Shown: positions 1,935 through 64,000 of the stretch, piece by piece
How the letters are laid out: the number at the start of each line of letters is the position of its first letter
Numbering within the stretch: the stretch's first letter is position 1
Assembly: GCA_963662715.1 (NCBI GenBank)
Contig: OY759724.1
Span: forward strand, 2,074,662 to 2,138,661
Direction: 5' to 3'
DNA: 64,000 nucleotides
Source of the DNA: Candidatus Omnitrophota bacterium
GTDB taxonomy: Bacteria > Omnitrophota > Gorgyraeia > Zapsychrales > JANLHA01
Notes under the pieces: generated by a model
The model's input: only the letters and a program-made list of their open reading frames with translations
Databases searched by the model: none
What the model was told of the DNA's origin: nothing
Program-made: the position numbers and the translations under genes

Positions 1935-3521
1935 ATGAATAAAAGCGTGGGATGGCCAGATATCCTTGACTTTATAATTCTTGGTCTTCTCTGTTTATTC
2001 GGGGCCGGATATTCTTTATTAAACCGGACATTCGCACAGCTTCATCTTCAGCTGTCTTTTTTGCCTTTCCCTGTGTTTATCGGTGAAATCCTGTTTGCTG
2101 TATGTTTGATTCTGTTGCTCCTGAAAGAGCGCCTTCAGGGGTATCCTTTCCTGAAAAACAAACCCAGAAGTTTTGCGGCGGGGCTGATATTTTTTTTGCT
2201 TTTCATCGGGTTGAAAGCAGGAACAGGATATCTTGCGTATGGCCCTTTGGCTTTCCGGAATGCCGCTTTGTTTTATTATATTGTGTTTGTTTGGATTGCC
2301 GCTTCCGCTTATAACAGAAGATTTTTTCAGCCGGCTGTTATTTTTTCTTTGATTTTTTTCTTCACCACGTCTATCGTCATCCGCCCGCTTAATTGTTATA
2401 TGTATTTTATGTTCAGTTATATCCTTTTAAGTTTGCTTCTTATCATTCGTCTGCCGCAAAAAAGAATACGGTGGATGATTGTGTCTGTTTTATTTCTTTT
2501 CATCCCTTATCTGTATATCCTCGGCAGTTCCCGGGCTAATATTGTGGCGAGTATTGCCGGTATGTGTGTTTTTCTTCTGTTGTATTTGAGCAAAAGTATG
2601 GTGAAGGTCCGTTTCCTGAGGATTTTTGTGTCCATCCTTGTTTTCCTTTTCGCTGCGGCTTTTTTCGTAATGACTTTCAGCCGGACGGAAGAGATTCGCA
2701 GTCTTACCCGTATTAAGGGATTCCTGGCGCAGTATCGGGAAGCGAATCGGCTGATTCAGGAGAAGAAAGATGATTATGTGATGAGGGATGTCCCCGTACA
2801 GTTGTATTCACATAATAAAACAATTGATTTCATGACAAGCGACAGCCGGATCATCGAAACAGACACTGTCAAAATGGTGAATAAAGTTAAACAGAATATG
2901 AAACAGCATTCTATAAGCATGTCGGTCCGGCTGGCCGCGGGGCCTGACGCTCAAGATGATGCACAGATTTTGGATTCGGAAACATACGACAAGTCCCGAA
3001 ATTTAAAAGACACGGCCGGTTCGCAGGCAGAGGCCGGGAAGGGCGATACCGCTGCGACAGCAAAAGCCTCTTTGACCAATGAACCCACGAATAATATATT
3101 GTGGCGCATTCTTGTTTGGAAAGACATGTTGCAGGAAGTCTGGGCTGTGAATCCCGTTTGGGGTGTACCTTTCGGGAAACCTTTCCGTTCTTGCAGTATT
3201 GAAATCCTGGGCTGGAACAAAATGGAAGTTGACGGCGTGGGGTGGCTGGAGCCGCATAATTCTTATGTGCATATTATTTACCGTGCGGGGGCGCTTGGGG
3301 TTTGCCTGATAGGTCTTATCCTGTTTTTGGTCGTACGCCTGGCGATATTTTTTGTCCGGAAAGGACGAACAACCGGGATTCTGCTTGTTTCGATCCTGGC
3401 ATACTGGCTGGTTGTGGCGAATTTCCTGGTGACTTATGAGCTCCCTTTTTTCGCTATCCCTTTCTGGAGTCTTATGGGCTTGACCGTCGGGTATTATCGG
3501 GATATTCAGGCTCATGCATAG
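1935..3521 (+). CDS. O-antigen ligase / Wzy-like polytopic membrane protein (paralog 1)
   Basis: More than 10 predicted TM helices. Wzy_C-type motif near the C-terminus (WLEPHNSYVHIIYRAGALGVCL). A roughly 150-aa hydrophilic low-complexity loop lies between TM blocks. Confidence 0.7.
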   Translation: MNKSVGWPDILDFIILGLLCLFGAGYSLLNRTFAQLHLQLSFLPFPVFIGEILFAVCLILLLLKERLQGYPFLKNKPRSFAAGLIFFLLFIGLKAGTGYLAYGPLAFRNAALFYYIVFVWIAASAYNRRFFQPAVIFSLIFFFTTSIVIRPLNCYMYFMFSYILLSLLLIIRLPQKRIRWMIVSVLFLFIPYLYILGSSRANIVASIAGMCVFLLLYLSKSMVKVRFLRIFVSILVFLFAAAFFVMTFSRTEEIRSLTRIKGFLAQYREANRLIQEKKDDYVMRDVPVQLYSHNKTIDFMTSDSRIIETDTVKMVNKVKQNMKQHSISMSVRLAAGPDAQDDAQILDSETYDKSRNLKDTAGSQAEAGKGDTAATAKASLTNEPTNNILWRILVWKDMLQEVWAVNPVWGVPFGKPFRSCSIEILGWNKMEVDGVGWLEPHNSYVHIIYRAGALGVCLIGLILFLVVRLAIFFVRKGRTTGILLVSILAYWLVVANFLVTYELPFFAIPFWSLMGLTVGYYRDIQAHA

Positions 3522-3698
3522 TTCTTGAAACTCTGAATCCAGCCGGAATTTCTGTCGGCCGGCGGCGGATCTGAATTTTTCCGGAATCCCGAAGGCGGGT
3601 TTGCTGATGGCAGCACGAAAGACATCCGGTGTTTCATGCTTGTAAAATTTTAAGAATAATGTAATATACTTACTTAAATTGTTTTTACGAAGGAGAAA

Positions 3699-4739
3699 AT
3701 GTCCGTGAAGAAGGCTTTAATAACCGGGGTGACAGGACAGGACGGGAGTTATCTGGCTGAACTTTTGCTCGACCAGGGCTATGAGGTCTATGGCCTCGTG
3801 CGACAAGAAGCTTTGGAAGATCCTAATCACAGGATGGAGAGATTTTTACATATCAGGGACAAGCTGAAATTGTCCGCCGCGTCTTTGGAAAGTTTTCCCA
3901 GCATTTTTAAGATCATTCAGGACGTCAAACCGGATGAGATTTATCATTTGGCCGCGCAGAGTTTCGTTTCTTATAGTTTTGATGACAAATTTTCCCCGCT
4001 GTTGACCAATATCAGCGGAACACATTATGCGCTTTCTTCCTGCAAATCCATGCCCGTTCCGGCCAAGTTTTATTTCGCCGGTTCGAGTGAAATGTTCGGG
4101 AAAGTGGATGCAGAACCCCAAAATGAATCAACGCCTTTTCATCCCCGGTCTCCTTACGGAATTTCCAAGGTGGCGGGTTTCCATTTGACCCGCAACTACC
4201 GTGAGTCTTACGAAATGTTTGCGTGTAACGGCATCTTATTCAATCATGAGTCTCCGCGCAGAGGATTTGAATTTGTCACCCGTAAAATCACATCCGGCGT
4301 GGCTAAAATTAAGTTCGGGCTGGCAGACAGGATCAGTTTAGGCAACCTGAACGCAAAACGCGACTGGGGATTTGCCGGGGATTATGTTAAAGCCATGTGG
4401 CTCATGTTGCAGCAGGAGAAGCCGGATGATTATGTTATTGCTACCGGTCATGCGCATACGGTGCGCGAATTTGTTGAGCTTTCGTTCAAGACGGTTGATA
4501 TGGAGATCCTTTGGGAAGGGAAGGGCATACACGAAAAAGGCATTGATGAGAAAAGCGGACGCGTTTTAGTTGATGTGAACAAAGAATTCTTCCGGCCCGA
4601 CCAAGTCCATGTCCTGAGAGGGGATTATACAAAAGCAAAAAGAATTTTAAACTGGGAACCAACCATTCAGTTCCATGATCTTGTCCCGATGATGGTCGAG
4701 GCGGATTGCCGTTTGTTCTCCCAGGACAAGATGCGATAA
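3699..4739 (+). CDS. gmd: GDP-mannose 4,6-dehydratase (divergent paralog)
   Basis: N-terminal Rossmann motif ITGVTGQDGSYLAELLL. Conserved Gmd blocks [49 protein letters not shown] ribosome-binding site before the ATG at 3699. Confidence 0.9.
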   Translation: MSVKKALITGVTGQDGSYLAELLLDQGYEVYGLVRQEALEDPNHRMERFLHIRDKLKLSAASLESFPSIFKIIQDVKPDEIYHLAAQSFVSYSFDDKFSPLLTNISGTHYALSSCKSMPVPAKFYFAGSSEMFGKVDAEPQNESTPFHPRSPYGISKVAGFHLTRNYRESYEMFACNGILFNHESPRRGFEFVTRKITSGVAKIKFGLADRISLGNLNAKRDWGFAGDYVKAMWLMLQQEKPDDYVIATGHAHTVREFVELSFKTVDMEILWEGKGIHEKGIDEKSGRVLVDVNKEFFRPDQVHVLRGDYTKAKRILNWEPTIQFHDLVPMMVEADCRLFSQDKMR

Positions 4740-4947: not shown

Positions 4948-7401
4948 TTGCCATGGGGAAGGCAGAAGGGTTTATTTATTTTCTCCATGCAGAATAATAC
5001 ATGTCAAAAAAAGACGCGAAAGCAGAAAGGGCTGGCCGTTTTCTGTTTGGCTCTGGCGCTGTTCGTTTTGTTCGCTCCCGTGTTGACCGGGAAAAAAATT
5101 TTATTCCCATCCGACCTGCTGCACACGATGATCTCCCCTTATGCTGAGGGACGGTCTGTTCATGTTTACAATCATTTTTTGAATGACATTGTCGTTCAGT
5201 ATTTCCCGTACAAAAAATTAACTCAAACAGCCCTGCTGCAAGGGCGATGGGCTTACTGGAATCCTCTCATCCTCGGCGGGTATCCGCAATATGCTTTAAC
5301 GATGGCGGGAAATTTTGACGTGACGAACCTTCTGCTGGTTTTTATCCCTGACCCGCTTCAGGCCTATTTCGTTCAGATTCTTGCTCTGCTGTTCATCGCC
5401 GGCATCTCCATGTTCGCCTTGCTTCAATATTACCAGCTGCCTGTAAATGCCAGCCTGCTTGGTGCCGTCTGTTACATGCTGAACAGCATGTTTATTTGCA
5501 CGATCTTTTTCCCCTGGATTATGGGGGCGTTCTGCTGGATGCCGGCGGCGGTTTTATTCCTGGATAAAAGCCTGAGGGATAGGTTATTGCGGGACCAGGC
5601 GCTTTGCGCTTTATTGACAGGCTGTGCCATGATGGCCGCTTCTGTTCAGACGATGAGTTTTATTTTTTTCCTGACGTTTGTGTTTTCTGTTATGTACGGG
5701 TATGTCTTCGCCCGGACTTTCAGAGATGTCGCAACACTGGCTAAGATTTATTTGACGATACATGTCTGGGCCATAGGCCTGACAGCGGTCATGTTGTTGC
5801 CTACATTAGAACTTTTCTATTTTGACGCTATCCAAGGCGGACAATGGGGCAACGTAGGGCAGGGGGCCATCCCCTTTGTCAAGAGGCTGTGGGGAGTCGC
5901 CGGCGTGATTTCCTTTGCTTTCCCGCAATTGGCCGGGAGTGTCAGGGCCTTTGATCTAACAAAATTAGCATCCTCAACGATGATGTTTTATAACGGTTTT
6001 ATCGGCTTTCTTCCGCTGCTTTTCGGATTGTTAAGTGTCCGGAATATCAAGAAAGACAAAAGAATCATCATTTATATGACCATCACGTTGTTCGGCTTGC
6101 TTGTGCCGCTTGCTTCGCCGTTCTTAAAATATGTTTATCACCGTTTTTTTATTATTTATATTTTCGGCATGTCTGTCCTCTCAGCCTTTGGGCTGACATA
6201 TTATTTGCAATGGCAGGATAAGGATAAGATGGCTTCTTTTTTAAGAAAGGTCACAGCCCTTTTTGTGCTGGTGGTGCTTGTTCTGCTGGCCGGTCATGTG
6301 TTCATTCAGCTTTTTTATGATGACGTTCTTAAGCACGGCCGGAAATTTGTCGAGGCTCATCTGCACATGGCTAACTTGCTTGCCGGCAATCGGGGCTGGT
6401 ATTTGGGGCGCGTGGAGAAACTCTTGCAGCATTTCAACTTTTTTGCTCCGGCCATTTTCATCCCTGTCGCCACCATGGCCTTGGGCCTGGGAGCGCTTTG
6501 GGCCCACAGGGCCAACCGGCTGAAATCATCATTCACAGGCCTCATTTTATTTATCACAGTTTTTCAGCTTTTGTTCTTTGCCTGGAGCTGGCTGCCCATG
6601 GTCAGCCCTCAGGAATACCCTTTATATCCTGAGACGCAGTCGGTTAATTTTTTAAAAAAAGATCAAGATTTATACCGGGTTTTGATTTATAACAATAATA
6701 CGAATAGGAAGCCTGTTTATTCTCCGAATATTCTTTCTGTCTACGGCATCGAAACGATCAACGGTTATGAAAGCGTTGAGCCTAAAACGATAAGATATTT
6801 GATTCAGGGTATGGACCCTGCGGTTTTAGGCTTGTGCAACGTCAAATATATTATCACGCATGATGATCCTCCTTTACGGAGTCCTCATTTGCATTTAACA
6901 TGGGAGGGGGAAGGCCTGCATATATATGAGAATGAACTGTTCGTCCCGCGGGCTTTTTTCCGGTGTCAGCATGAAGTCAGATCCGAGACAGATATCCTTC
7001 AGGGCATTCGGACAGGCCGGTTGGATACCAGCCGGAAAGTCTTTTTCAGTGAAGGGTTGGGCGGGCAGGCCGGGGGGCAGCAAGGGGAGAATTTGCGAAA
7101 GCCTTTGATAAAATTAAGGCAATATTCCCCGGAAGAAGTTTTATATGAGGTCGAGACACAGGTGCCGGGCTATTTCGTGCTCAGTCAATCCTGGTATCCG
7201 GGGTGGACCTGTTATCTCGACGGCCGGCAGGAAGAAGTCAGAAAAGCGAATTATTGTATGCTGGCTGTCCGCGTCCCGGCCGGGAAACATAAAGTCCGGT
7301 TTGTATTCCGTCCGCGTATTTTTTATATAGGCCTTGCTGTAAGCTCGATATTTTTTCTGTTGATTCTTATTTCATTAAGGAAGAAAAGACATGCCTCTTA
7401 A
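4948..7401 (+). CDS. YfhO-family membrane protein (GT-C fold, probable glycosyltransferase/glycan-modifying enzyme)
   Basis: 817-aa polytopic membrane protein with YfhO-like blocks NDIVVQYFPYKK and GRWAYWNPLILGGYPQYA. Start is uncertain (ATG at 4948 or 4987). Confidence 0.6.
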   Translation: MPWGRQKGLFIFSMQNNTCQKKTRKQKGLAVFCLALALFVLFAPVLTGKKILFPSDLLHTMISPYAEGRSVHVYNHFLNDIVVQYFPYKKLTQTALLQGRWAYWNPLILGGYPQYALTMAGNFDVTNLLLVFIPDPLQAYFVQILALLFIAGISMFALLQYYQLPVNASLLGAVCYMLNSMFICTIFFPWIMGAFCWMPAAVLFLDKSLRDRLLRDQALCALLTGCAMMAASVQTMSFIFFLTFVFSVMYGYVFARTFRDVATLAKIYLTIHVWAIGLTAVMLLPTLELFYFDAIQGGQWGNVGQGAIPFVKRLWGVAGVISFAFPQLAGSVRAFDLTKLASSTMMFYNGFIGFLPLLFGLLSVRNIKKDKRIIIYMTITLFGLLVPLASPFLKYVYHRFFIIYIFGMSVLSAFGLTYYLQWQDKDKMASFLRKVTALFVLVVLVLLAGHVFIQLFYDDVLKHGRKFVEAHLHMANLLAGNRGWYLGRVEKLLQHFNFFAPAIFIPVATMALGLGALWAHRANRLKSSFTGLILFITVFQLLFFAWSWLPMVSPQEYPLYPETQSVNFLKKDQDLYRVLIYNNNTNRKPVYSPNILSVYGIETINGYESVEPKTIRYLIQGMDPAVLGLCNVKYIITHDDPPLRSPHLHLTWEGEGLHIYENELFVPRAFFRCQHEVRSETDILQGIRTGRLDTSRKVFFSEGLGGQAGGQQGENLRKPLIKLRQYSPEEVLYEVETQVPGYFVLSQSWYPGWTCYLDGRQEEVRKANYCMLAVRVPAGKHKVRFVFRPRIFYIGLAVSSIFFLLILISLRKKRHAS

Positions 7402-48048: not shown

Positions 48049-48122
48049 GGGCCCATAGCTCAGTCGGTCAGAGCAGTTGACTCATAATCAATTGGTCCCA
48101 GGTTCGAGTCCTGGTGGGCCCA
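48049..48122 (+). tRNA. tRNA with CAU anticodon (elongator tRNA-Met or lysidine-modified tRNA-Ile2)
   Basis: Cloverleaf folded by hand: acceptor GGGCCCA/TGGGCCC, D-arm GCTC..GAGC, anticodon stem GTTGA/TCAAT, loop CTCATAA, T-arm CCAGG-TTCGAGT-CCTGG, discriminator A. G1:C72 means it is not an initiator. C4:G69/C5:G68 resemble tRNA-Ile2. Confidence 0.85.
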
Positions 48123-48177
48123 GATAATACTGATATGTTTTGTCGCAAAGCAGGTTGTGCTTCCTTACGAATAAAAT

Positions 48178-48254
48178 GGGCGCATAGCTCAGCCGGTTAG
48201 AGTGCTGCCCTCACATGGCAGAGGTCGAAGGTTCGAGTCCTTCTGTGCCCACCA
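48178..48254 (+). tRNA. tRNA-Val (CAC), CCA encoded
   Basis: Acceptor GGGCGCA/TGTGCCC, anticodon stem CTGCC/GGCAG, loop CTCACAT, T-arm GAAGG-TTCGAGT-CCTTC, discriminator A followed by genomic CCA. Confidence 0.85.
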
Positions 48255-49090: not shown

Positions 49091-49546
49091 ATGAGACTGA
49101 AAATATACTCTGATGGTGCTTGTAGCGGTAATCCCGGCCCCGCAGGTATTGGTGTTGTTATTCACAAAGACGGGGAAGTTGTTAAAGAGATTTCGAAGTA
49201 TATCGGAGAGGCAACGAATAATATTGCAGAGTATACGGCTGTCATTTATGCCGCTCAGGAAGCGCTGATTATGCGGGCCGATGAAGTAGCGCTTTTTACT
49301 GACAGCGAGCTTGTTTATAATCAATTGTCCGGCTATTATAAGGTTAAGGACAGCAAAATCAAGCCGCTTTTTGATCAAATTCAGCATTTAGCTGGGGGGT
49401 TCAAAAAATTTTATATCACGCATGTCCTCAGGGATAAAAACAAGGACGCTGATAAATTAGCACGTAAGGCCATTAAAGACAAGCAGGCCAAGGTGGTTGC
49501 CTCGCGGCCGGTCCAGAATCAGGTGCAGTCTGATTTATGGGCTTAA
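49091..49546 (+). CDS. rnhA: ribonuclease HI family protein
   Basis: IYSDGACSGNPGPAGIGVVI, TNNIAEYTAVI, VALFTDSELV, THVLRDKNKDADKLARKA. The C-terminal 20 aa lie over the predicted 5' part of the RNase P RNA. Confidence 0.85.
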   Translation: MRLKIYSDGACSGNPGPAGIGVVIHKDGEVVKEISKYIGEATNNIAEYTAVIYAAQEALIMRADEVALFTDSELVYNQLSGYYKVKDSKIKPLFDQIQHLAGGFKKFYITHVLRDKNKDADKLARKAIKDKQAKVVASRPVQNQVQSDLWA

Positions 49547-49900
49547 ACAAACCGCGGGGAGGAAAGTCCGGGCTCCAAAGGATATTGTATCCTGGTAACG
49601 CAGGACATCCTGATTTCCGTATCAGGGTAGGATTAGAGCTACAGTGACGATACTCGATCCTTGTTAACAGGGGTCGAGGGTGAAACGAGCAATCTCTACA
49701 AGGAGCAAGGCCAAATAGGGAGAGACACGGTGATAACACCGGGGCGAAGTGATCCGCTTCGCGAAAAGAGCGCAGCTGTTTTCGGTATCTCCGGGTAGGC
49801 TGCAAGAGTCCTTAACGTGAGTTGAGGAGTCAGTGCAATAACCATCCATCTCGCCTGTAAAAAATCGAGATGCACAAAACCCGGCTTATTGGTCTGCTTG
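49480..49900 (+). ncRNA. rnpB: bacterial RNase P RNA (type A-like); 5' boundary uncertain and probably inside the rnhA 3' coding region
   Basis: Universal blocks GAGGAAAGTCCGGGCTCC (49559..49576), AGGGTGAAAC (49677..49686), GGAGCAAGGCCAAATAGGG (49702..49720) and CACAAAACCCGGCTTAT (49873..49889). Candidate P1 is 49480..49490 paired with 49890..49900 (11 bp, one G-U). Confidence 0.8.
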
Positions 49901-50018
49901 AAATATCATTTTTGGGGAATTTTTATGAGTGTTCTGAGAGATGTCGGAATATGGCTTTTCGAAAAGAGAGCGGATTTTTTATTTGTATGAATCATGATTT
50001 AAATGAGGAGGGTTGAAT

Positions 50019-59443: not shown

Positions 59444-60175
59444 ATGGAAGACATTCATTGGAAGGATCAATATGATAAGCTGATCGCGGAAGGAAAAAAA
59501 AGCGGATTCCTCCACCGGGATGCGATCACCAAGAGCCTTCAATCCGCCGGGGCCGATGAGCAAGAGCTTCAGCAGGCGCTGGTGAATTTGCATGATGAAG
59601 GCATTGAAATTGTCAGGAAGTCGGCCACCCGCGAATGGGTGGAATCCATTGTTATCGCCTTTATTCTTGCCATGTTTATCCGGGAATTCTTCTTCCAGGC
59701 TTTCCGGATTCCAAGCGGGTCTATGCGGAACACCCTCCTGGAGGGGGATCGGCTGCTGGTTAATAAATTGTATTATGGCCCCAAGATTCGGTTTACCCAA
59801 AAACGTTTGCCGGGGTTCACGACCCCGCATCGGGGAGATGTTATTGTCTTTATTTACCCGCTTGACCCCAAAAGAGATTTTATTAAACGACTTATAGCCG
59901 TGGGCGGGGAGATCGTAGAAATAAAGGACGGCGATATCTTTATTAACGGGAAGCTGATTGAAAATCCTTTGATTAAGAACACTTTCTACTATAATTACGG
60001 CAATGCTTTGCCGGGCCAGAAGATCAAGGTTCCGGAAGGGCATTATTTCGTTTTAGGCGATAACAGTGCCTCGAGCAGTGACAGCCGTTATTGGGGGTTT
60101 GTGCCGGAAAACAATGTTGTCGGGAAGGCCGCTTTGATTTACTGGCCTCCGCAACGCATACGCCTGATAAAATAG
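59444..60175 (+). CDS. lepB: signal peptidase I with about 55-aa N-terminal cytoplasmic extension
   Basis: Catalytic blocks IPSGSMRNTL and GDNSASSSDSRYWGFV. GGAGAG ribosome-binding site before the ATG at 59444. Confidence 0.9.
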   Translation: MEDIHWKDQYDKLIAEGKKSGFLHRDAITKSLQSAGADEQELQQALVNLHDEGIEIVRKSATREWVESIVIAFILAMFIREFFFQAFRIPSGSMRNTLLEGDRLLVNKLYYGPKIRFTQKRLPGFTTPHRGDVIVFIYPLDPKRDFIKRLIAVGGEIVEIKDGDIFINGKLIENPLIKNTFYYNYGNALPGQKIKVPEGHYFVLGDNSASSSDSRYWGFVPENNVVGKAALIYWPPQRIRLIK

Positions 60176-60219
60176 GGTTATGCCTGTGTGAGATTTTTGA
60201 ACCCAGCCTGAGGGATCAG

Positions 60220-60630
60220 ATGAGAAAGATGTTGCGGAAGAGTTTGAATATCGGCGTCGCCGGGTATTTCTTCGTCAGCCTGTTGTTTCTTCTTCTGTCG
60301 GGATGTGCTTCTTTTGGGCAGCAAAAAGGATCTCTTCAGAAAACGGACGGGAAGCTCCGAAAAGAAACGAAAGAAGAGATCCTTTCCGCGGCAGGGACAG
60401 TTGTGGAAGCCGTGAGCGGACAGGATATGACAGAAGAGGAATTAAAGGATTTTGTGGAGAATATGCGCAAGGATGAAGAGGCTCAGGAGGCGGTGGAAAC
60501 CATCGCTGATGCCTTGGACCAGAATCATAAAAAAGTGAAATATTGCCCTGTGACCGGAAAAAGATACCGTTATAGTCTTGAAAGATGTCCGATTCATAAT
60601 GTGCCGTTGAAAGTATTAGGGGAAGAATAA
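60220..60630 (+). CDS. hypothetical lipoprotein with C-terminal CPxxG...CPxH zinc-knuckle-like motif
   Basis: Lipobox LLSGC after a signal peptide. GAGGGA ribosome-binding site. Acidic middle. CPVTGKRYRYSLERCPIH at the C-terminus. Confidence 0.6.
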   Translation: MRKMLRKSLNIGVAGYFFVSLLFLLLSGCASFGQQKGSLQKTDGKLRKETKEEILSAAGTVVEAVSGQDMTEEELKDFVENMRKDEEAQEAVETIADALDQNHKKVKYCPVTGKRYRYSLERCPIHNVPLKVLGEE

Positions 60631-60663: not shown

Positions 60664-61236
60664 ATGCCGGTTACCTTAGCCAATAGGATTACTCTTATCC
60701 GTATTTTGTTAGTGCCATTTTTTATCATGGCGCTTTTGTATTATTCCCCTGAACAAACCTTTTGGCTTCGTGTGGCTTTGGCGATATTATTGCTGGCGGT
60801 GTTCTCGGATATCGCCGACGGGTATTTGGCGAGAAAACGGGGCGAGAAAAGTTCTTTGGGAATTCTGCTGGACCCGTTAGCCGATAAAATGTTATTGATG
60901 AGCGGTTTTATCTGCCTGAATCAGATCGGCGTTCATTTGCCTGTTTTTAGATTCCCGACGTGGTTGATCGTGACGGCCATCAGCAGAGATGTTGTCCTGA
61001 TCGTCGGTTCCGCTTTGATCGTCATTCATCACGGGAGCCTGTGCATTGAAGCGACCTGGTGGGGCAAAATTTCCACGATGAGCCAGGTTGCTGTCATCGC
61101 GGGGATGTTGTTGCAGTGGTCCTGGTCGGAATTGTTGTGGCCTTTTGTCGTCTTGTCCTGCGGGGTGTCAGGCCTGGACTATTTGATGAAAGGATTTAAA
61201 TTATTAAACATCGAGAATCCCGGAGGTTCGTCCTGA
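60664..61236 (+). CDS. pgsA: CDP-diacylglycerol--glycerol-3-phosphate 3-phosphatidyltransferase (CDP-alcohol phosphatidyltransferase family)
   Basis: DIADGYLARKRGEKSSLGILLDPLADK motif. Four to five TM helices. Confidence 0.85.
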   Translation: MPVTLANRITLIRILLVPFFIMALLYYSPEQTFWLRVALAILLLAVFSDIADGYLARKRGEKSSLGILLDPLADKMLLMSGFICLNQIGVHLPVFRFPTWLIVTAISRDVVLIVGSALIVIHHGSLCIEATWWGKISTMSQVAVIAGMLLQWSWSELLWPFVVLSCGVSGLDYLMKGFKLLNIENPGGSS

Positions 61237-61260
61237 CGGGAGTTAACAGAGGATAACAAC

Positions 61261-61881
61261 ATGTTCCTTTTATGGGGATTGATTCTGAGTTATTTGATCG
61301 GCTCGTTTCCAACGGCCTATGTTTTTGTCCGGGTGCTGAAAGGTGTCGATATCAGAGACTATGGTTCGGGCAATGTCGGAGCCACGAATGCCTCCCGTGT
61401 TTTGGGAAAAGGGCCGGGGCTCTTTGTCCTTTTCCTTGATGTCGTCAAGGGCATCCTGCCTGTCGTATGGCTGGGAGGCGCTTTATCCTTGGAGGGCATT
61501 GTTGAATGTGTTTTGTTAGGCGTTGCCGTCGTCTGCGGGCATAACTGGTCCGTCTTTTTAAGGTTCAAAGGGGGGAAAGGCATTGCTACAAGTCTGGGCG
61601 TGTTAATCGGCCTGGCTATGAATTTCCCCCCTTTTCGCCCGGTCCTGATTCTGACATTATCTTTGTGGACAGTTATTTTCTTCGTGACGGGTTATGTTTC
61701 GCTTTCCTCTATAACCGCGGGGTTCGGCTTGCCTGTCTTTATGATCCTGACACATCAGGTTGTAGAGATGATTATTCTAGGATGTATACTTTGTGTCTTT
61801 GTTTTTCTCCGGCATATCCCCAATATCCGACGGCTCCTTCAGGGGCAGGAGTCCCGCATGAATTTGTTCCCCAGAAAGTGA
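61261..61881 (+). CDS. plsY: glycerol-3-phosphate acyltransferase PlsY
   Basis: GSGNVGATNASRVLG and HNWSVFLRFKGGKG blocks. Confidence 0.9.
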   Translation: MFLLWGLILSYLIGSFPTAYVFVRVLKGVDIRDYGSGNVGATNASRVLGKGPGLFVLFLDVVKGILPVVWLGGALSLEGIVECVLLGVAVVCGHNWSVFLRFKGGKGIATSLGVLIGLAMNFPPFRPVLILTLSLWTVIFFVTGYVSLSSITAGFGLPVFMILTHQVVEMIILGCILCVFVFLRHIPNIRRLLQGQESRMNLFPRK

Positions 61882-62143
61882 ATTTCTCTTTCTTTCGGCT
61901 TATTTCCGTAAGTCCTATATTCCCTGCGGGTAGGGGTGCCCACCTGCGCAGCTTTTAAAAAAAATATTGCATAAAAAATTGCCGGTTAAAGAAAGCGTTT
62001 TTTTGTCCCGTCGCTGCCGGAAAAATATTTTTGAAAGAAAGCGCTTTCTCCCCTAAAAGGCGATGACCTTGCCTGCCGGAATCCACATGTTATACTTTGA
62101 TTGTAAGTTCCCAATAAACATTCTTGCCCTTGAGGGGGAGGAC

Positions 62144-62497
62144 ATGCGGAAAATATTATATAAAAAACGCCATTCTTTTAAACACCGTCGGAAAATTATT
62201 TTGATTAAAGAGATGGCCGAAGATAAAGAATGCCGGACAATAGTTCAAAAAAGTTTTATTTACAAAATTAGAAATTCGGGGTATACTAATACTGTTGATA
62301 CGCATCCAGAGATATTCGTTAGAAAACATATTGATAACAAACAGCAGAAAGAAGTTTTTCATTTTAAAGTTAAAGGTTCATTCTCATTGAGGCAGGGACG
62401 GCATTCTTACAAAGTTGAATTTTGTCATATTTTGAAAATAAATATTTTTTGGAAAGCAAAAATTTTCTCCCCCAAAAAGTCAGGAACTCTGACTTAG
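62144..62497 (+). CDS. hypothetical small, highly basic protein (117 aa) in a low-GC islet
   Basis: GGGGGAGG ribosome-binding site then ATG at 62144. About 30% GC versus about 48% in flanks. Strong intrinsic terminator downstream. No recognisable family. Confidence 0.5.
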   Translation: MRKILYKKRHSFKHRRKIILIKEMAEDKECRTIVQKSFIYKIRNSGYTNTVDTHPEIFVRKHIDNKQQKEVFHFKVKGSFSLRQGRHSYKVEFCHILKINIFWKAKIFSPKKSGTLT

Positions 62498-62529
62498 CTG
62501 CTTGTGTTTAATCAACACTAGCCGAGGAT

Positions 62530-62568
62530 GAGCGGCAGTCTTTTCGAAGACTGCCGCTCGTTTTTTAT
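62530..62568 (+). terminator. Rho-independent terminator
   Basis: Perfect 13-bp stem GAGCGGCAGTCTT/AAGACTGCCGCTC with a TTCG loop, followed by GTTTTTTATT. Confidence 0.8.
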
Positions 62569-62665
62569 TCAATAAAATCTTATCTTGAAAACAAAGCACT
62601 TTTTCTATAAACTACCATTAATATTAGAAATTAAAAAAGACTAATAATTTAATATATATTGTCTT

Positions 62666-63433
62666 ATGAGAAACAAAATCGTATGGCTACCTGTTATCAT
62701 ATCAGTGTTGGGCTGTGCTACCGTTCATCCTGATAATAATATATCTCCGCAGACCCCCGTTGGCACTACAGAACAACAGGAGGATGTTGCCGACACAGAG
62801 CTGGATATCCCAGACACCTCCCCGGCTTCTGTTTTAGAGGATATCTCCTTGCAGGATGTGGCAGAGGAATCAGCTTCTTCAGCAGAGGAAGCAGAAAGAT
62901 TGTTAATCCCTTCCGGGTCCGTGTTCGCCAAGACCGTGTTTGAAGGTGTTGTAAAAACAAGCTATGTCCAATTGAGTATTGTTGACATCACCGACCCCCA
63001 AAAAGTTTTTCAACTGATCATCGGGGACAAGGACCGGCAGAAAAATTTGCCGTGGAATATTCAGACAGTCAAACCAGGCTATTTCTTTATCGATTTGCCT
63101 GTTGGGCGGTATCGGATTAATTCGATTACGATCCCCGTGGGGACAACTTTAGCCACAGAGCCGATGGACGTTTCTTTTGATGTTGAGCTGGACAAAACGA
63201 TTTACCTCGGGACATTAAGAGTCATTGGAGAAAAGGAGCGGATTAAACTCGGCGGTGTCCCGATTATCAAGCCGGGTTTTGAATATACCTTGCAGGTCCT
63301 CGATGAAAGAACAGAAGCTCAGAAGGAGTTCCTGCGACGCTTCCCGGAACATCATGGCAGCATTGATTACCAGCTCATGGAAATCAACGCCTTCCGTAAT
63401 ACCCACGAACTTCTCCAGAAGGATAATTCCTGA
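62666..63433 (+). CDS. hypothetical lipoprotein (acidic linker plus beta-rich domain)
   Basis: Signal peptide with lipobox VLGC. Asp/Glu/Ser-rich linker. No recognisable domain. Confidence 0.6.
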   Translation: MRNKIVWLPVIISVLGCATVHPDNNISPQTPVGTTEQQEDVADTELDIPDTSPASVLEDISLQDVAEESASSAEEAERLLIPSGSVFAKTVFEGVVKTSYVQLSIVDITDPQKVFQLIIGDKDRQKNLPWNIQTVKPGYFFIDLPVGRYRINSITIPVGTTLATEPMDVSFDVELDKTIYLGTLRVIGEKERIKLGGVPIIKPGFEYTLQVLDERTEAQKEFLRRFPEHHGSIDYQLMEINAFRNTHELLQKDNS

Positions 63434-63597
63434 AAATATTTTTGAATTTTTGCCGGATCCTCAGCGGAACAAGAGAAAAGAATCGCTGCGGGGAACTAAA
63501 AAAAGTGCAAGAACAGATGGTCAGTTGGGATCTTTATGGTAAAATACGTTCTATAAGTCTTTATTGAGTAAGATTTAACCGTAAAGGAGGTTCTTCA

Positions 63598-64000
63598 TGT
63601 CCAGGACATTAGCTCTTGTTGTTATAGTGATGATGGTGTTGTCGGGATGCGTGACATCATCTCCTAATTCTAGCAATGTCAATATGCTGCAGATGCGGGT
63701 CGGTGAGCTTGAGCGGGAAGTGCAGACAAAGGATAATGAGATCAAAGATTTGCAGTATCAGATTAAAGATTTGAGTTATGAGATTGACCGGTTGAAAAAT
63801 AAATCCCCCCGTATGGAAAAGCGGCCTGCCGTAAGCTCAGCGGTTCCCGCCAGCAGTAAAACAGAGGCGGATGATGATATTATCCGGGTTAAAGCCAGTA
63901 TCCGGCAGGTGCAGGTGGCTCTGAAGAAAGCCGGTTATTATAAAGGAAACATCGACGGGAAAGTCGGAGACATGACCAAGACCGCTATCAGCGATTTTCA
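63598..64000 (+). CDS. lipoprotein with coiled-coil segment and C-terminal peptidoglycan-binding (PG_binding_1-like) domain; 3' end lies outside the window
   Basis: AAGGAGG ribosome-binding site. Lipobox VLSGC. Heptad-like IKDLQYQIKDLSYEIDRLK. ALKKAGYYKGNIDGKVGDMTKTAISDF resembles the PG-binding motif. Confidence 0.65.

Follow-up and report, generated by a model that had tools for sequence, protein, structure and literature searches.

A conserved AT-rich transcription unit in Omnitrophota that pairs a small basic protein with a candidate RNA module at its 3' end

Here we discuss an AT-rich stretch at positions 61985-62660 of a 64,000-nucleotide (nt) piece of a Candidatus Omnitrophota genome, which as a whole is called the window below. 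The stretch appears to be one self-contained transcription unit on the + strand, extending from about 62103 to 62566 by its predicted ends. It contains a single gene (62144-62497, + strand) for a basic, all-β protein of 117 amino acids, which belongs to subfamily A of an uncurated Omnitrophota family. We read this gene, with a probability of about 55%, as a vertically inherited and heavily regulated effector that is probably an output of cyclic dimeric guanosine monophosphate (c-di-GMP) signalling and binds a polyanion, while the 3' end of its mRNA has a regulatory role of its own. Three layers of control can be distinguished: a private operator, c-di-GMP riboswitches or PilZ partners in one branch of the family, and an RNA module overlapping the coding region in the other. 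Candidate phyla are rich in conserved hypothetical families; such a combination is unusual.

The product starts MRKILYKKRHSFKHRRK... and has 29 Lys and Arg residues against 9 Asp and Glu, an isoelectric point of 10.4 and a net charge of about +20. A first-pass annotation of the window had described this Lys/Arg-rich open reading frame (ORF) as an orphan without similarity to a known family. The frame is indeed present, but it is no orphan. A search of 5.8 billion proteins identified 42 homologues with 43-100% identity, which are 116-141 amino acids long except for two short fragments and mostly measure exactly 117. Among 1.84 billion cluster representatives, a profile search identified at least 150 homologue clusters at E ≤ 0.001; among the matches listed, 82 reach E ≤ 1e-10 and most family clusters have 100-130 amino acids. 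The second half of the description holds for the curated libraries that were searched: Pfam, PHROGs, NCBIfam and PADLOC gave nothing above noise for the window protein, nor did curated family searches with ten distant members and all 35 members of the subfamily-B alignment, and sequence-profile searches of the PDB with both subfamilies returned chance matches only (E ≥ 0.1). Homology searching thus supplies relatives, but neither a curated family nor a relative in the PDB.

All family members that carry an organism name in these protein searches are Candidatus Omnitrophota or Omnitrophica. Among species-representative genomes, 25 loci were found; their labels read Omnitrophota in 19 cases, 'uncultured Planctomycetales' in five and 'uncultured bacterium' in one. 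The family alignment has 26 invariant columns, and its insertions and deletions comprise whole codons only. Where residues in the body of the protein are invariant, third codon positions are essentially random, with entropies of 1.95 bits for T32, 1.87 for P55, 1.87 for V76 and 1.85 for V91, and for this reason the gene is taken to encode a real protein that appears to be under purifying selection. The most distant of the members that were examined, with E = 7e-4 against the profile, is found away from plsY, at 5001-5390 of locus L030, where L-numbers are the labels of the collected homologue loci. Its neighbours are two glutamine synthetase genes on one side and a secretin gene on the other, with gaps of about 300 nt to each side.

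The connection to c-di-GMP comes from the sister subfamily B, whose members begin MRDLVFKN..., have about 105-118 amino acids and occupy the same locus as subfamily A. The two subfamilies are homologous over residues 1-104 (hhalign probability 99.85%). Subfamily-B genes have unrelated 3' ends, which lack the RNA module described below, and are preceded by long 5' leaders. In several of these leaders, immediately before the gene, the c-di-GMP-I riboswitch RF01051 passes its gathering score (L032 with 42.2 bits, L112 with 41.1, L052 and L053 with 37.1, L091 with 36.9). The 3' signature of the aptamer, AGCCGGGTTGCCGAAGGA, lies 60-100 nt upstream in 27 loci when up to one mismatch is allowed and in about 40 when up to three are allowed. 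A terminator, GCCGGGTTGCC...GGCAACCCGGC-Tn, uses the bases of this signature as its 5' arm. Ligand binding should therefore block termination, from which we infer that the subfamily-B riboswitch acts as an ON switch. The family would accordingly represent an output of c-di-GMP signalling.

Many other subfamily-B leaders hold only 'TCCCCACCAGCCA...GGGGATAGCCGGGTTGC' or 'TCCCCACCAGCCA...GGGGATAGCCGGGTTGCC' together with a terminator, that is, the second aptamer hairpin without the first. These truncated leaders lie about 60-250 nt upstream (L036, L037, L041, L044-L048, L055-L057, L062, L063, L065, L069, L073, L088, L090 and L097-L100) and were not recognised by Rfam at E ≤ 1. They may be degenerate or a distinct riboswitch that senses another ligand or none. 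For three full-length leaders (L076 2795-2903, L043 2822-2925 and L109 2818-2925) the best match is the c-di-GMP-I-GGC variant RF03167, with 24.8-27.1 bits against a gathering score of 59; we take the ligand of this variant to be unknown.

Additional evidence is provided by the neighbouring genes. Eight small ORFs directly adjacent to the family gene encode single-domain PilZ proteins (PF07238, 40-49 bits). Some lie downstream, as in L043, where stop and start codon overlap in TAATG at 3351, while in four loci (L050 2533-2880, L071 2537-2854, L090 2497-2886 and L096 364-711) the PilZ gene is inserted between the palindrome-promoter described below and the family gene, so that the order is palindrome-promoter, PilZ, riboswitch-like leader and family gene. 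The window protein itself was also considered as a PilZ domain, and this was rejected: it has no PF07238 match with the RxxxR and (D/N)xSxxG motifs.

The next gene downstream of subfamily-B members often encodes a protein of about 910-940 amino acids with an N-terminal hydrophobic segment (L069, L073, L082, L089, L097, L098 and L100). The one scanned, from L073, has tetratricopeptide (TPR) repeats, and the others share the N-terminal sequence. In L065 the downstream gene (3436-3855) is type IV pilin-like with an N-terminal methylation motif. Large TPR-type and pilin-like genes in this position fit a theme of cell surface and attachment.

In subfamily A, a different element catches the eye. The transcript of the window gene ends in a module of about 100 nt on the + strand, which is composed of the unpaired motif UUCUCCCCC, two hairpins and a terminator. 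The C-rich motif (62465-62473) spells codons F108-S109-P110, with frozen synonymous sites, and is unpaired in the predicted fold. Hairpin 1 (AAGUCAG-GAACU-CUGACUU, 62477-62495) reaches one base into the TAG stop codon (62495-62497). It is followed by hairpin 2 of the predicted fold (GCU.GUGUU-UAAUC-AACAC.AGC, 62500-62522), whose stem sequence varies between lineages, and by the intrinsic terminator (GAGCGGCAGUCUU/AAGACUGCCGCUC, 62530-62566), which combines a perfect 13-bp stem (62530-62542 with 62547-62559) with a UUCG loop, a G and six U. This terminator had been recorded by the first-pass annotation and is clearly present, despite being missed by a simple terminator scan. The whole 3' region folds with -45 kcal/mol (z = -7.2), and the terminator helix is conserved.

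The block UUCUCCCCC-N3-AAGUCAG-N5-CUGACUU (62465-62495) is frozen. In a set of 23 sequences, which covers protein identities down to 37% and loci with a guanine-cytosine (GC) content of 35-55%, the last eleven codons are nearly invariant in their nucleotides: CCC and AAG are kept in 23/23, TCC, TCA and CTG in 22/23, TTC in 21/23 and ACT in 19/23. Elsewhere in the gene the same amino acids take other codons, and Fisher tests of tail against body codons give p = 2e-6 to 4e-12, values that are approximate for related sequences. Since the last eleven codons are frozen while the remaining gene is saturated, the RNA sequence itself appears to be under selection. A pattern scan of 29 loci found the frozen motif a single time in each of them, always at the 3' end of this gene, and the window likewise has one copy. 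A hint that the RNA and not the peptide is kept comes from L015 (4322-4348), where a 1-nt deletion between the C-run and hairpin 1 leaves the RNA motif intact and changes the end of the peptide to FSPTSQKL; this is a single metagenome-assembled genome, and the deletion may be genuine or an assembly error.

The predicted helices are also reflected in the pattern of substitutions. In hairpin 1, a compensatory double change is seen once, in L023 (GCCAG/CUGGC), and there are two changes to G-U, in L017 and L026, a pattern that fits pairing only in the + strand RNA. Hairpin 2 has a mean z of -2.6 against shuffles in 22 distinct lineages, 16 of which fall below -1.5, and the terminator helix shows double changes in nine of its ten pairs. 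Paired cells amount to 96.2% as compared with 81.5% in shuffles, 11 of 17 pairs carry double changes, and none of 500 shuffles reaches the observed value. No known RNA family was found in the unit by Rfam, neither at E ≤ 1 over 61000-64000 nor at the gathering threshold over the whole window. A dnaX-like -1 frameshift (CCCAAAAAG followed by a hairpin) was considered and rejected: codon 111 varies (AAA, CAA, GAA, AAT, AAC, AGC), there is no spacer because the hairpin starts at AAG, and hairpins instead of a conserved frame lie downstream.

What might this module do? It displays a conserved unpaired seed-like stretch, hairpins, a terminator and selection beyond coding, as a small RNA (sRNA) derived from an mRNA 3' end does. 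We propose that it would be a post-transcriptional regulatory element. One option is an sRNA processed from the 3' end, whose C-rich stretch would serve as seed against G-rich, Shine-Dalgarno-like targets; another is a cis element that would govern stability or translation of its own mRNA. In this genome the C-run can pair with the gene's own Shine-Dalgarno sequence at -16.6 kcal/mol, the strongest value among 48 leaders in the window. By analogy, the architecture of a 3'-processed sRNA or C-rich-seed regulator is the preferred reading, with a protective transcript end nearly as likely.

The most serious competitor is indeed this plainer view, in which the module is a mere transcript end made of a terminator and protective hairpins, and the freeze results from hairpin 1 together with the coding of K-S...L-T. 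In its favour, both hairpins and the terminator are stem-loops of an ordinary kind, no targets were seen in the window, and the sequence upstream of codon 108 shows no conservation that would suggest an internal promoter. Against this, UUCUCCCCC is unpaired in the predicted folds and yet is the strictest frozen part (CCC 23/23, TCC 22/23), and subfamily B manages with unrelated 3' ends, so that the module is not needed merely for termination. We regard the plain transcript end as possible, though on the doubtful side.

Several observations weigh against the reading of the gene as a c-di-GMP output with a regulatory 3' end. The kinship of the sequences means that both the Fisher and the shuffle statistics overstate independence. 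Pairing of the C-run with the own Shine-Dalgarno sequence is not a family feature, since the values for subfamily A do not exceed those for subfamily B, where the motif is missing (p = 0.59), and there is no excess of C-run-complementary targets within the window. Most subfamily-B leaders retain the aptamer only in part and below Rfam thresholds. The window has no c-di-GMP riboswitch match (E ≤ 1 over 61000-64000, gathering threshold over the whole window) and no copy of the signature. A PilZ gene of the neighbour type is found neither within the 64-kb window nor in subfamily-A loci. The ties to c-di-GMP in this genome would thus be homology and the shared operator and promoter only. As there is no riboswitch at the window gene, the link may run here via a transcription factor or via the 3' module.

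A bolder version of the c-di-GMP reading appears rather speculative to us. It describes a module specific to Omnitrophota, in which a basic protein of new fold, as an output or partner of c-di-GMP and PilZ signalling, would be combined with a dual-function mRNA. The last 33 coding nucleotides and the 3' untranslated region (UTR) would then form a C-rich-seed riboregulator or the protein's own binding site, replacing the 5' riboswitch in the clade of the window.

At the start of the unit, a promoter-like pair TTGCCT/TATACT and a strong ribosome-binding site had been pointed out at first pass; both are present, and conservation strengthens the promoter. The -35 box TTGCCT (62069-62074, + strand) is conserved as TTGCCT or TTGCTT in close relatives and as cTTGnn or TTGAAA in others. 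After a 16-nt spacer follows the extended -10 box TGtTATACT (62088-62096, + strand, with TATACT at 62091-62096 and TG upstream). In subfamily A, a conserved TATACT, usually as TGtTATACTT, is found 35-45 nt upstream of the ATG; in subfamily B it precedes the long leader. The -10 box and the first transcribed bases are conserved as TGtTATACTTyGAtTGTAA, which would place the transcription start at about 62103. The Shine-Dalgarno region GAGGGGGAGG (62132-62141, + strand) contains the core GGGGGAGG at 62134-62141, and most homologues have a purine-rich Shine-Dalgarno sequence.

Upstream of the promoter lies a perfect 12-bp palindrome without strand, GAAAGCGCTTTC (62037-62048), 20 nt from the -35 box and with its centre at about -60 from the predicted start. 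The short direct repeat that had been reported here does exist (AAAGAAAGCG at 61988-61997 and 62034-62043), but its nature is different: it represents two copies of the palindrome. The distal copy, GAAAGCGTTTTT (61991-62002, no strand), is degenerate with one mismatch to GAAANCGNTTTC, holds most of the first repeat copy and is kept, as GAAAGCG, in no relatives beyond the four closest. Within the window, GAAANCGNTTTC is matched exactly at 62037-62048 and nowhere else. No further site of a palindrome regulon was found within the window, where one-mismatch matches occur at chance rate. The motif GAAA[G/A/C]CG[N]TTTC precedes the promoter in the inspected loci of both subfamilies. In 604 kb of collected loci, the pattern of palindrome, 15-30 nt, TTGNNN, 15-19 nt and TAYAMT occurs 75 times, always before a family gene or before a PilZ gene that is followed by a family gene. 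We infer that a dedicated transcription factor binds the palindrome, whose position near -60 is of the activator type. Its central-CG layout presumably resembles that of LacI-family operators. Just past the palindrome, TTTCTCCCCTAAAAG (62044-62058) resembles the 3' tail motif TTTCTCCCCCAAAAAG (62464-62479). This 15-nt likeness is not conserved in the closest relatives and is taken as chance.

Could the protein itself be the factor that recognises GAAAGCGCTTTC, as a DNA-binding or nucleoid-associated protein that regulates its own gene? It is very basic and small, in the 604 kb of loci the palindrome occurs only before this gene family, the window has a single exact copy, and in the loci inspected the site is kept wherever the protein occurs. 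However, the predicted structure gave no convincing match to a DNA-binding fold, a centre near -60 is an atypical position for an autorepressor, and in operons that start with PilZ the site governs both genes. The central CG, a layout typical of LacI-type operators, would likewise point to a separate regulator. We therefore think of autoregulation through the palindrome as unlikely.

Structure prediction gives a first impression of the protein. An AlphaFold2 model based on a 32-sequence alignment has a predicted local distance difference test score of 87.8 and a predicted template modelling (TM) score of 0.76. It shows six long antiparallel strands (3-11, 16-26, 30-44, 53-64, 69-84 and 87-103) and a tail (104-117) of low confidence, which is absent in more distant homologues. 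Conserved residues alternate along the strands (K36/F38/Y40; P55..K61; E70/F72/F74/V76/G78/F80; V91/F93/H95/L97/I99/I101/W103). One face of the modelled sheet is thus conserved and mostly hydrophobic, as for the core of a barrel or sandwich or for an interface, and the opposite face is variable and strongly basic. Foldseek comparisons with the PDB or BFVD reached a TM-score of at most 0.45, with no convincing fold match, known nucleic-acid-binding folds included. The suggestion that this is a small nucleic-acid-binding protein is plausible because of the isoelectric point and the modelled basic, variable outer face. With its charge of about +20 and a hydrophobic face opposite a basic one, the protein would act by binding a polyanion, most likely a nucleic acid.

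Two more specific proposals follow this line. In the first, the protein would bind hairpin 1 at its own stop codon and regulate itself in the way a single-stranded RNA phage coat protein does through its operator hairpin. The analogy has its limits: structural scores against these coat proteins are in the noise range, the C-terminal helices are missing and there is no sequence similarity, while the hairpin is located at the stop instead of the start codon and is absent in subfamily B. In the second, the protein would be a peripheral binder of anionic lipids with a functional tie to the phospholipid genes that precede it (pgsA and plsY, with gpsA downstream in L032). The invariant place after plsY and pgsA, the amphipathic strands with their strong positive charge, and weak structural matches that include the lipid binders START, FadL and LpqN speak for this idea. 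On the other hand, the gene has its own promoter and terminator and is hence not co-transcribed with plsY, a barrel or sandwich core explains the alternating hydrophobic face equally well, and the association with riboswitches and PilZ favours signalling over lipid synthesis. Both proposals strike us as improbable.

The composition of the stretch had originally suggested horizontal acquisition. Measured in 200-nt windows, GC falls to 0.305-0.35 over 62100-62799, while the flanks have 0.44-0.55. The stretch 61985-62660 as a whole has 33.6% GC and the ORF 30.8%, compared with 46.7% for the window. The reported drop to about 30% is real, but its onset was placed too early at about 61990; it begins near 62100, since 61900-62199 still has 0.41-0.43. 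The ORF is the 354-nt segment with the lowest GC in the 64 kb (0.31 against 0.478 ± 0.022 for window genes). Its GC at third codon positions (GC3) is 0.29 against 0.54 ± 0.034 for 48 long ORFs of the window, seven standard deviations lower. Sliding-window composition and codon usage thus both bear out the islet, which is atypical for its host.

Much of this can be traced to the protein. From its amino acids and the codon usage of the window, a GC of 38.2% is expected, with 30.8% observed and a gene mean of 47.8%. The composition rich in Lys, Ile, Phe and Asn accounts for slightly over half of the drop, and AT-ending codons for the remainder. In all 28 loci looked at, the GC of the gene does not exceed that of its flanks. 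In the window gene, L001 and L005, GC3 is 0.21-0.28 below that of plsY (0.28-0.36 against 0.53-0.60). A GC3 depression as a trait of the whole family was rejected, as it is limited to the window's own clade. Low GC3 persists in the closest relatives, at 75-84% protein identity. Because these relatives are no closer than that and synonymous sites in the family are saturated, we read the AT-rich codon choice as maintained and not as a residue of transfer.

The genomic position argues in the same direction. The gene follows plsY (61261-61881, PF02660, E = 9e-53) directly and is followed by a gene for a lipoprotein-like protein of 255 amino acids (62666-63433). In all 27 subfamily-A loci that are long enough to show it, it directly follows plsY in a block lepA-lepB-(small ORF)-pgsA-plsY. 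The same position after plsY is found in 64 of 80 subfamily-B metagenomic loci, and most of the other 16 are short contigs. Locus and orientation are the same in about 90 loci. Identity to the window falls roughly in step for the family protein and its neighbours, from 84 to 37% for the family protein, from 89 to 71% for LepA and from 66 to 51% for PlsY. There is no tRNA gene near the ORF, the nearest ones being at 48049-48254, and inspection of the ORFs in the last 5 kb revealed no obvious mobility gene. The only repeat flanking the gene is the operator-like motif. Related genomes show no patchy occurrence: the gene is kept after plsY. The gene thus appears to be ancient, vertically inherited and restricted to the phylum Omnitrophota.

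A recently acquired foreign islet with an orphan gene is, in this light, very improbable. It would account for the lowest GC in the window and for a GC3 seven standard deviations under that of the window genes. It is at odds with a position and orientation that about 90 loci share, with at least 150 clusters of homologues, with a low GC3 that the four closest relatives retain at 75-84% identity and saturated synonymous sites, and with the lack of a nearby tRNA gene and of any ORF in the last 5 kb that stood out as an integrase or mobility gene. The first-pass annotation had itself named homologues that mark a conserved gene as the observation to overturn its suggestion; as a conserved gene at a fixed position was found (27/27 and 64/80) and no mobility signatures were seen, horizontal acquisition is refuted. 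That the ORF is spurious and the region only a non-coding RNA can practically be dismissed: the 3' end is conserved at the nucleotide level, as a non-coding RNA would be, but a frame of about 117 codons stays open in AT-rich DNA across all homologues with indels in multiples of three, amino acids are kept while third positions are saturated, and a structure is predicted with confidence.

Other features were seen in the window and the collected loci. Between lepB and pgsA, the window contains an ORF of 179 amino acids (60091-60630) with homologues of 33-55% identity in the same position in most loci. It has a C-terminal Cys-x-x-x...Cys-P-x-H pattern that is zinc-ribbon-like, and its Pfam and NCBIfam matches are weak (E ≥ 0.0025). 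RNA genes of the window include a class A RNase P RNA (49480-49904, 163.7 bits), tRNA-Met (48049-48122) and tRNA-Val (48178-48254). In L009, the start of a group II intron (4570-4654, RF02001, 49.8 bits) lies about 200 nt past the terminator of the family gene, at the contig end.

The Omnitrophota, bacteria of very small size, occur widely and have mostly not been cultured; a host-dependent or predatory life is assumed for some of them. To our knowledge, almost nothing has been learned about lifestyle switching in this phylum. A gene that is restricted to the phylum and fixed in its position is a strong candidate for a component of a lineage-specific switch. The case also holds a caution for genome scans: a sharp low-GC islet with odd codon usage can be ancient and vertically inherited, with its composition maintained.

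How does the unit compare with known systems? The palindrome resembles what we take to be the layout of LacI/GalR-type operators with a central CG, such as cre, Cra and PurR boxes. It shares with them the 12-bp GAAA-G-CG-C-TTTC arrangement and, with activating cre sites, the location near -60. Unlike in cre, the flanking TG/CA is absent, and the motif is essentially private to this gene. The genes controlled by the c-di-GMP-I riboswitch (GEMM-I, RF01051) are a second point of reference: homologues of the sister subfamily carry this aptamer in their 5' leader, whereas the window gene does not. For the PilZ partners, the closest analogue is presumably CdbS/CdbA of Myxococcus, a stand-alone PilZ adaptor with a small DNA-binding partner. 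In relatives of the window gene, a single-domain PilZ protein of about 105-130 amino acids is likewise encoded beside a small basic protein or co-transcribed with it. The protein described here differs in being predicted as all-β, with no match to a ribbon-helix-helix or another known DNA-binding fold, and no PilZ gene lies near it in the window.

For the 3' end, we take the C-rich-seed sRNAs of the RsaE/RoxS type in Firmicutes, which mask Shine-Dalgarno sequences, to be comparable. As in these, the unpaired C-run UCUCCCCC can pair with G-rich ribosome-binding sites. In contrast to them, there is one C-run instead of several, it lies within the coding region, complementarity to the own Shine-Dalgarno sequence is not subfamily-wide, and Rfam reports no sequence similarity. 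Similar in layout are the enterobacterial sRNAs derived from 3' UTRs, such as CpxQ, SroC and DapZ. The unit departs from this type in that the last 33 nt of the coding sequence already belong to its conserved block and hairpin 1 directly adjoins the stop codon, and in that it belongs to an Omnitrophota lineage and has no Rfam match. It shares with them a conserved unpaired seed-like stretch that is followed, where the mRNA ends, by hairpins and a Rho-independent terminator, together with a nucleotide conservation that exceeds the constraint imposed by coding.

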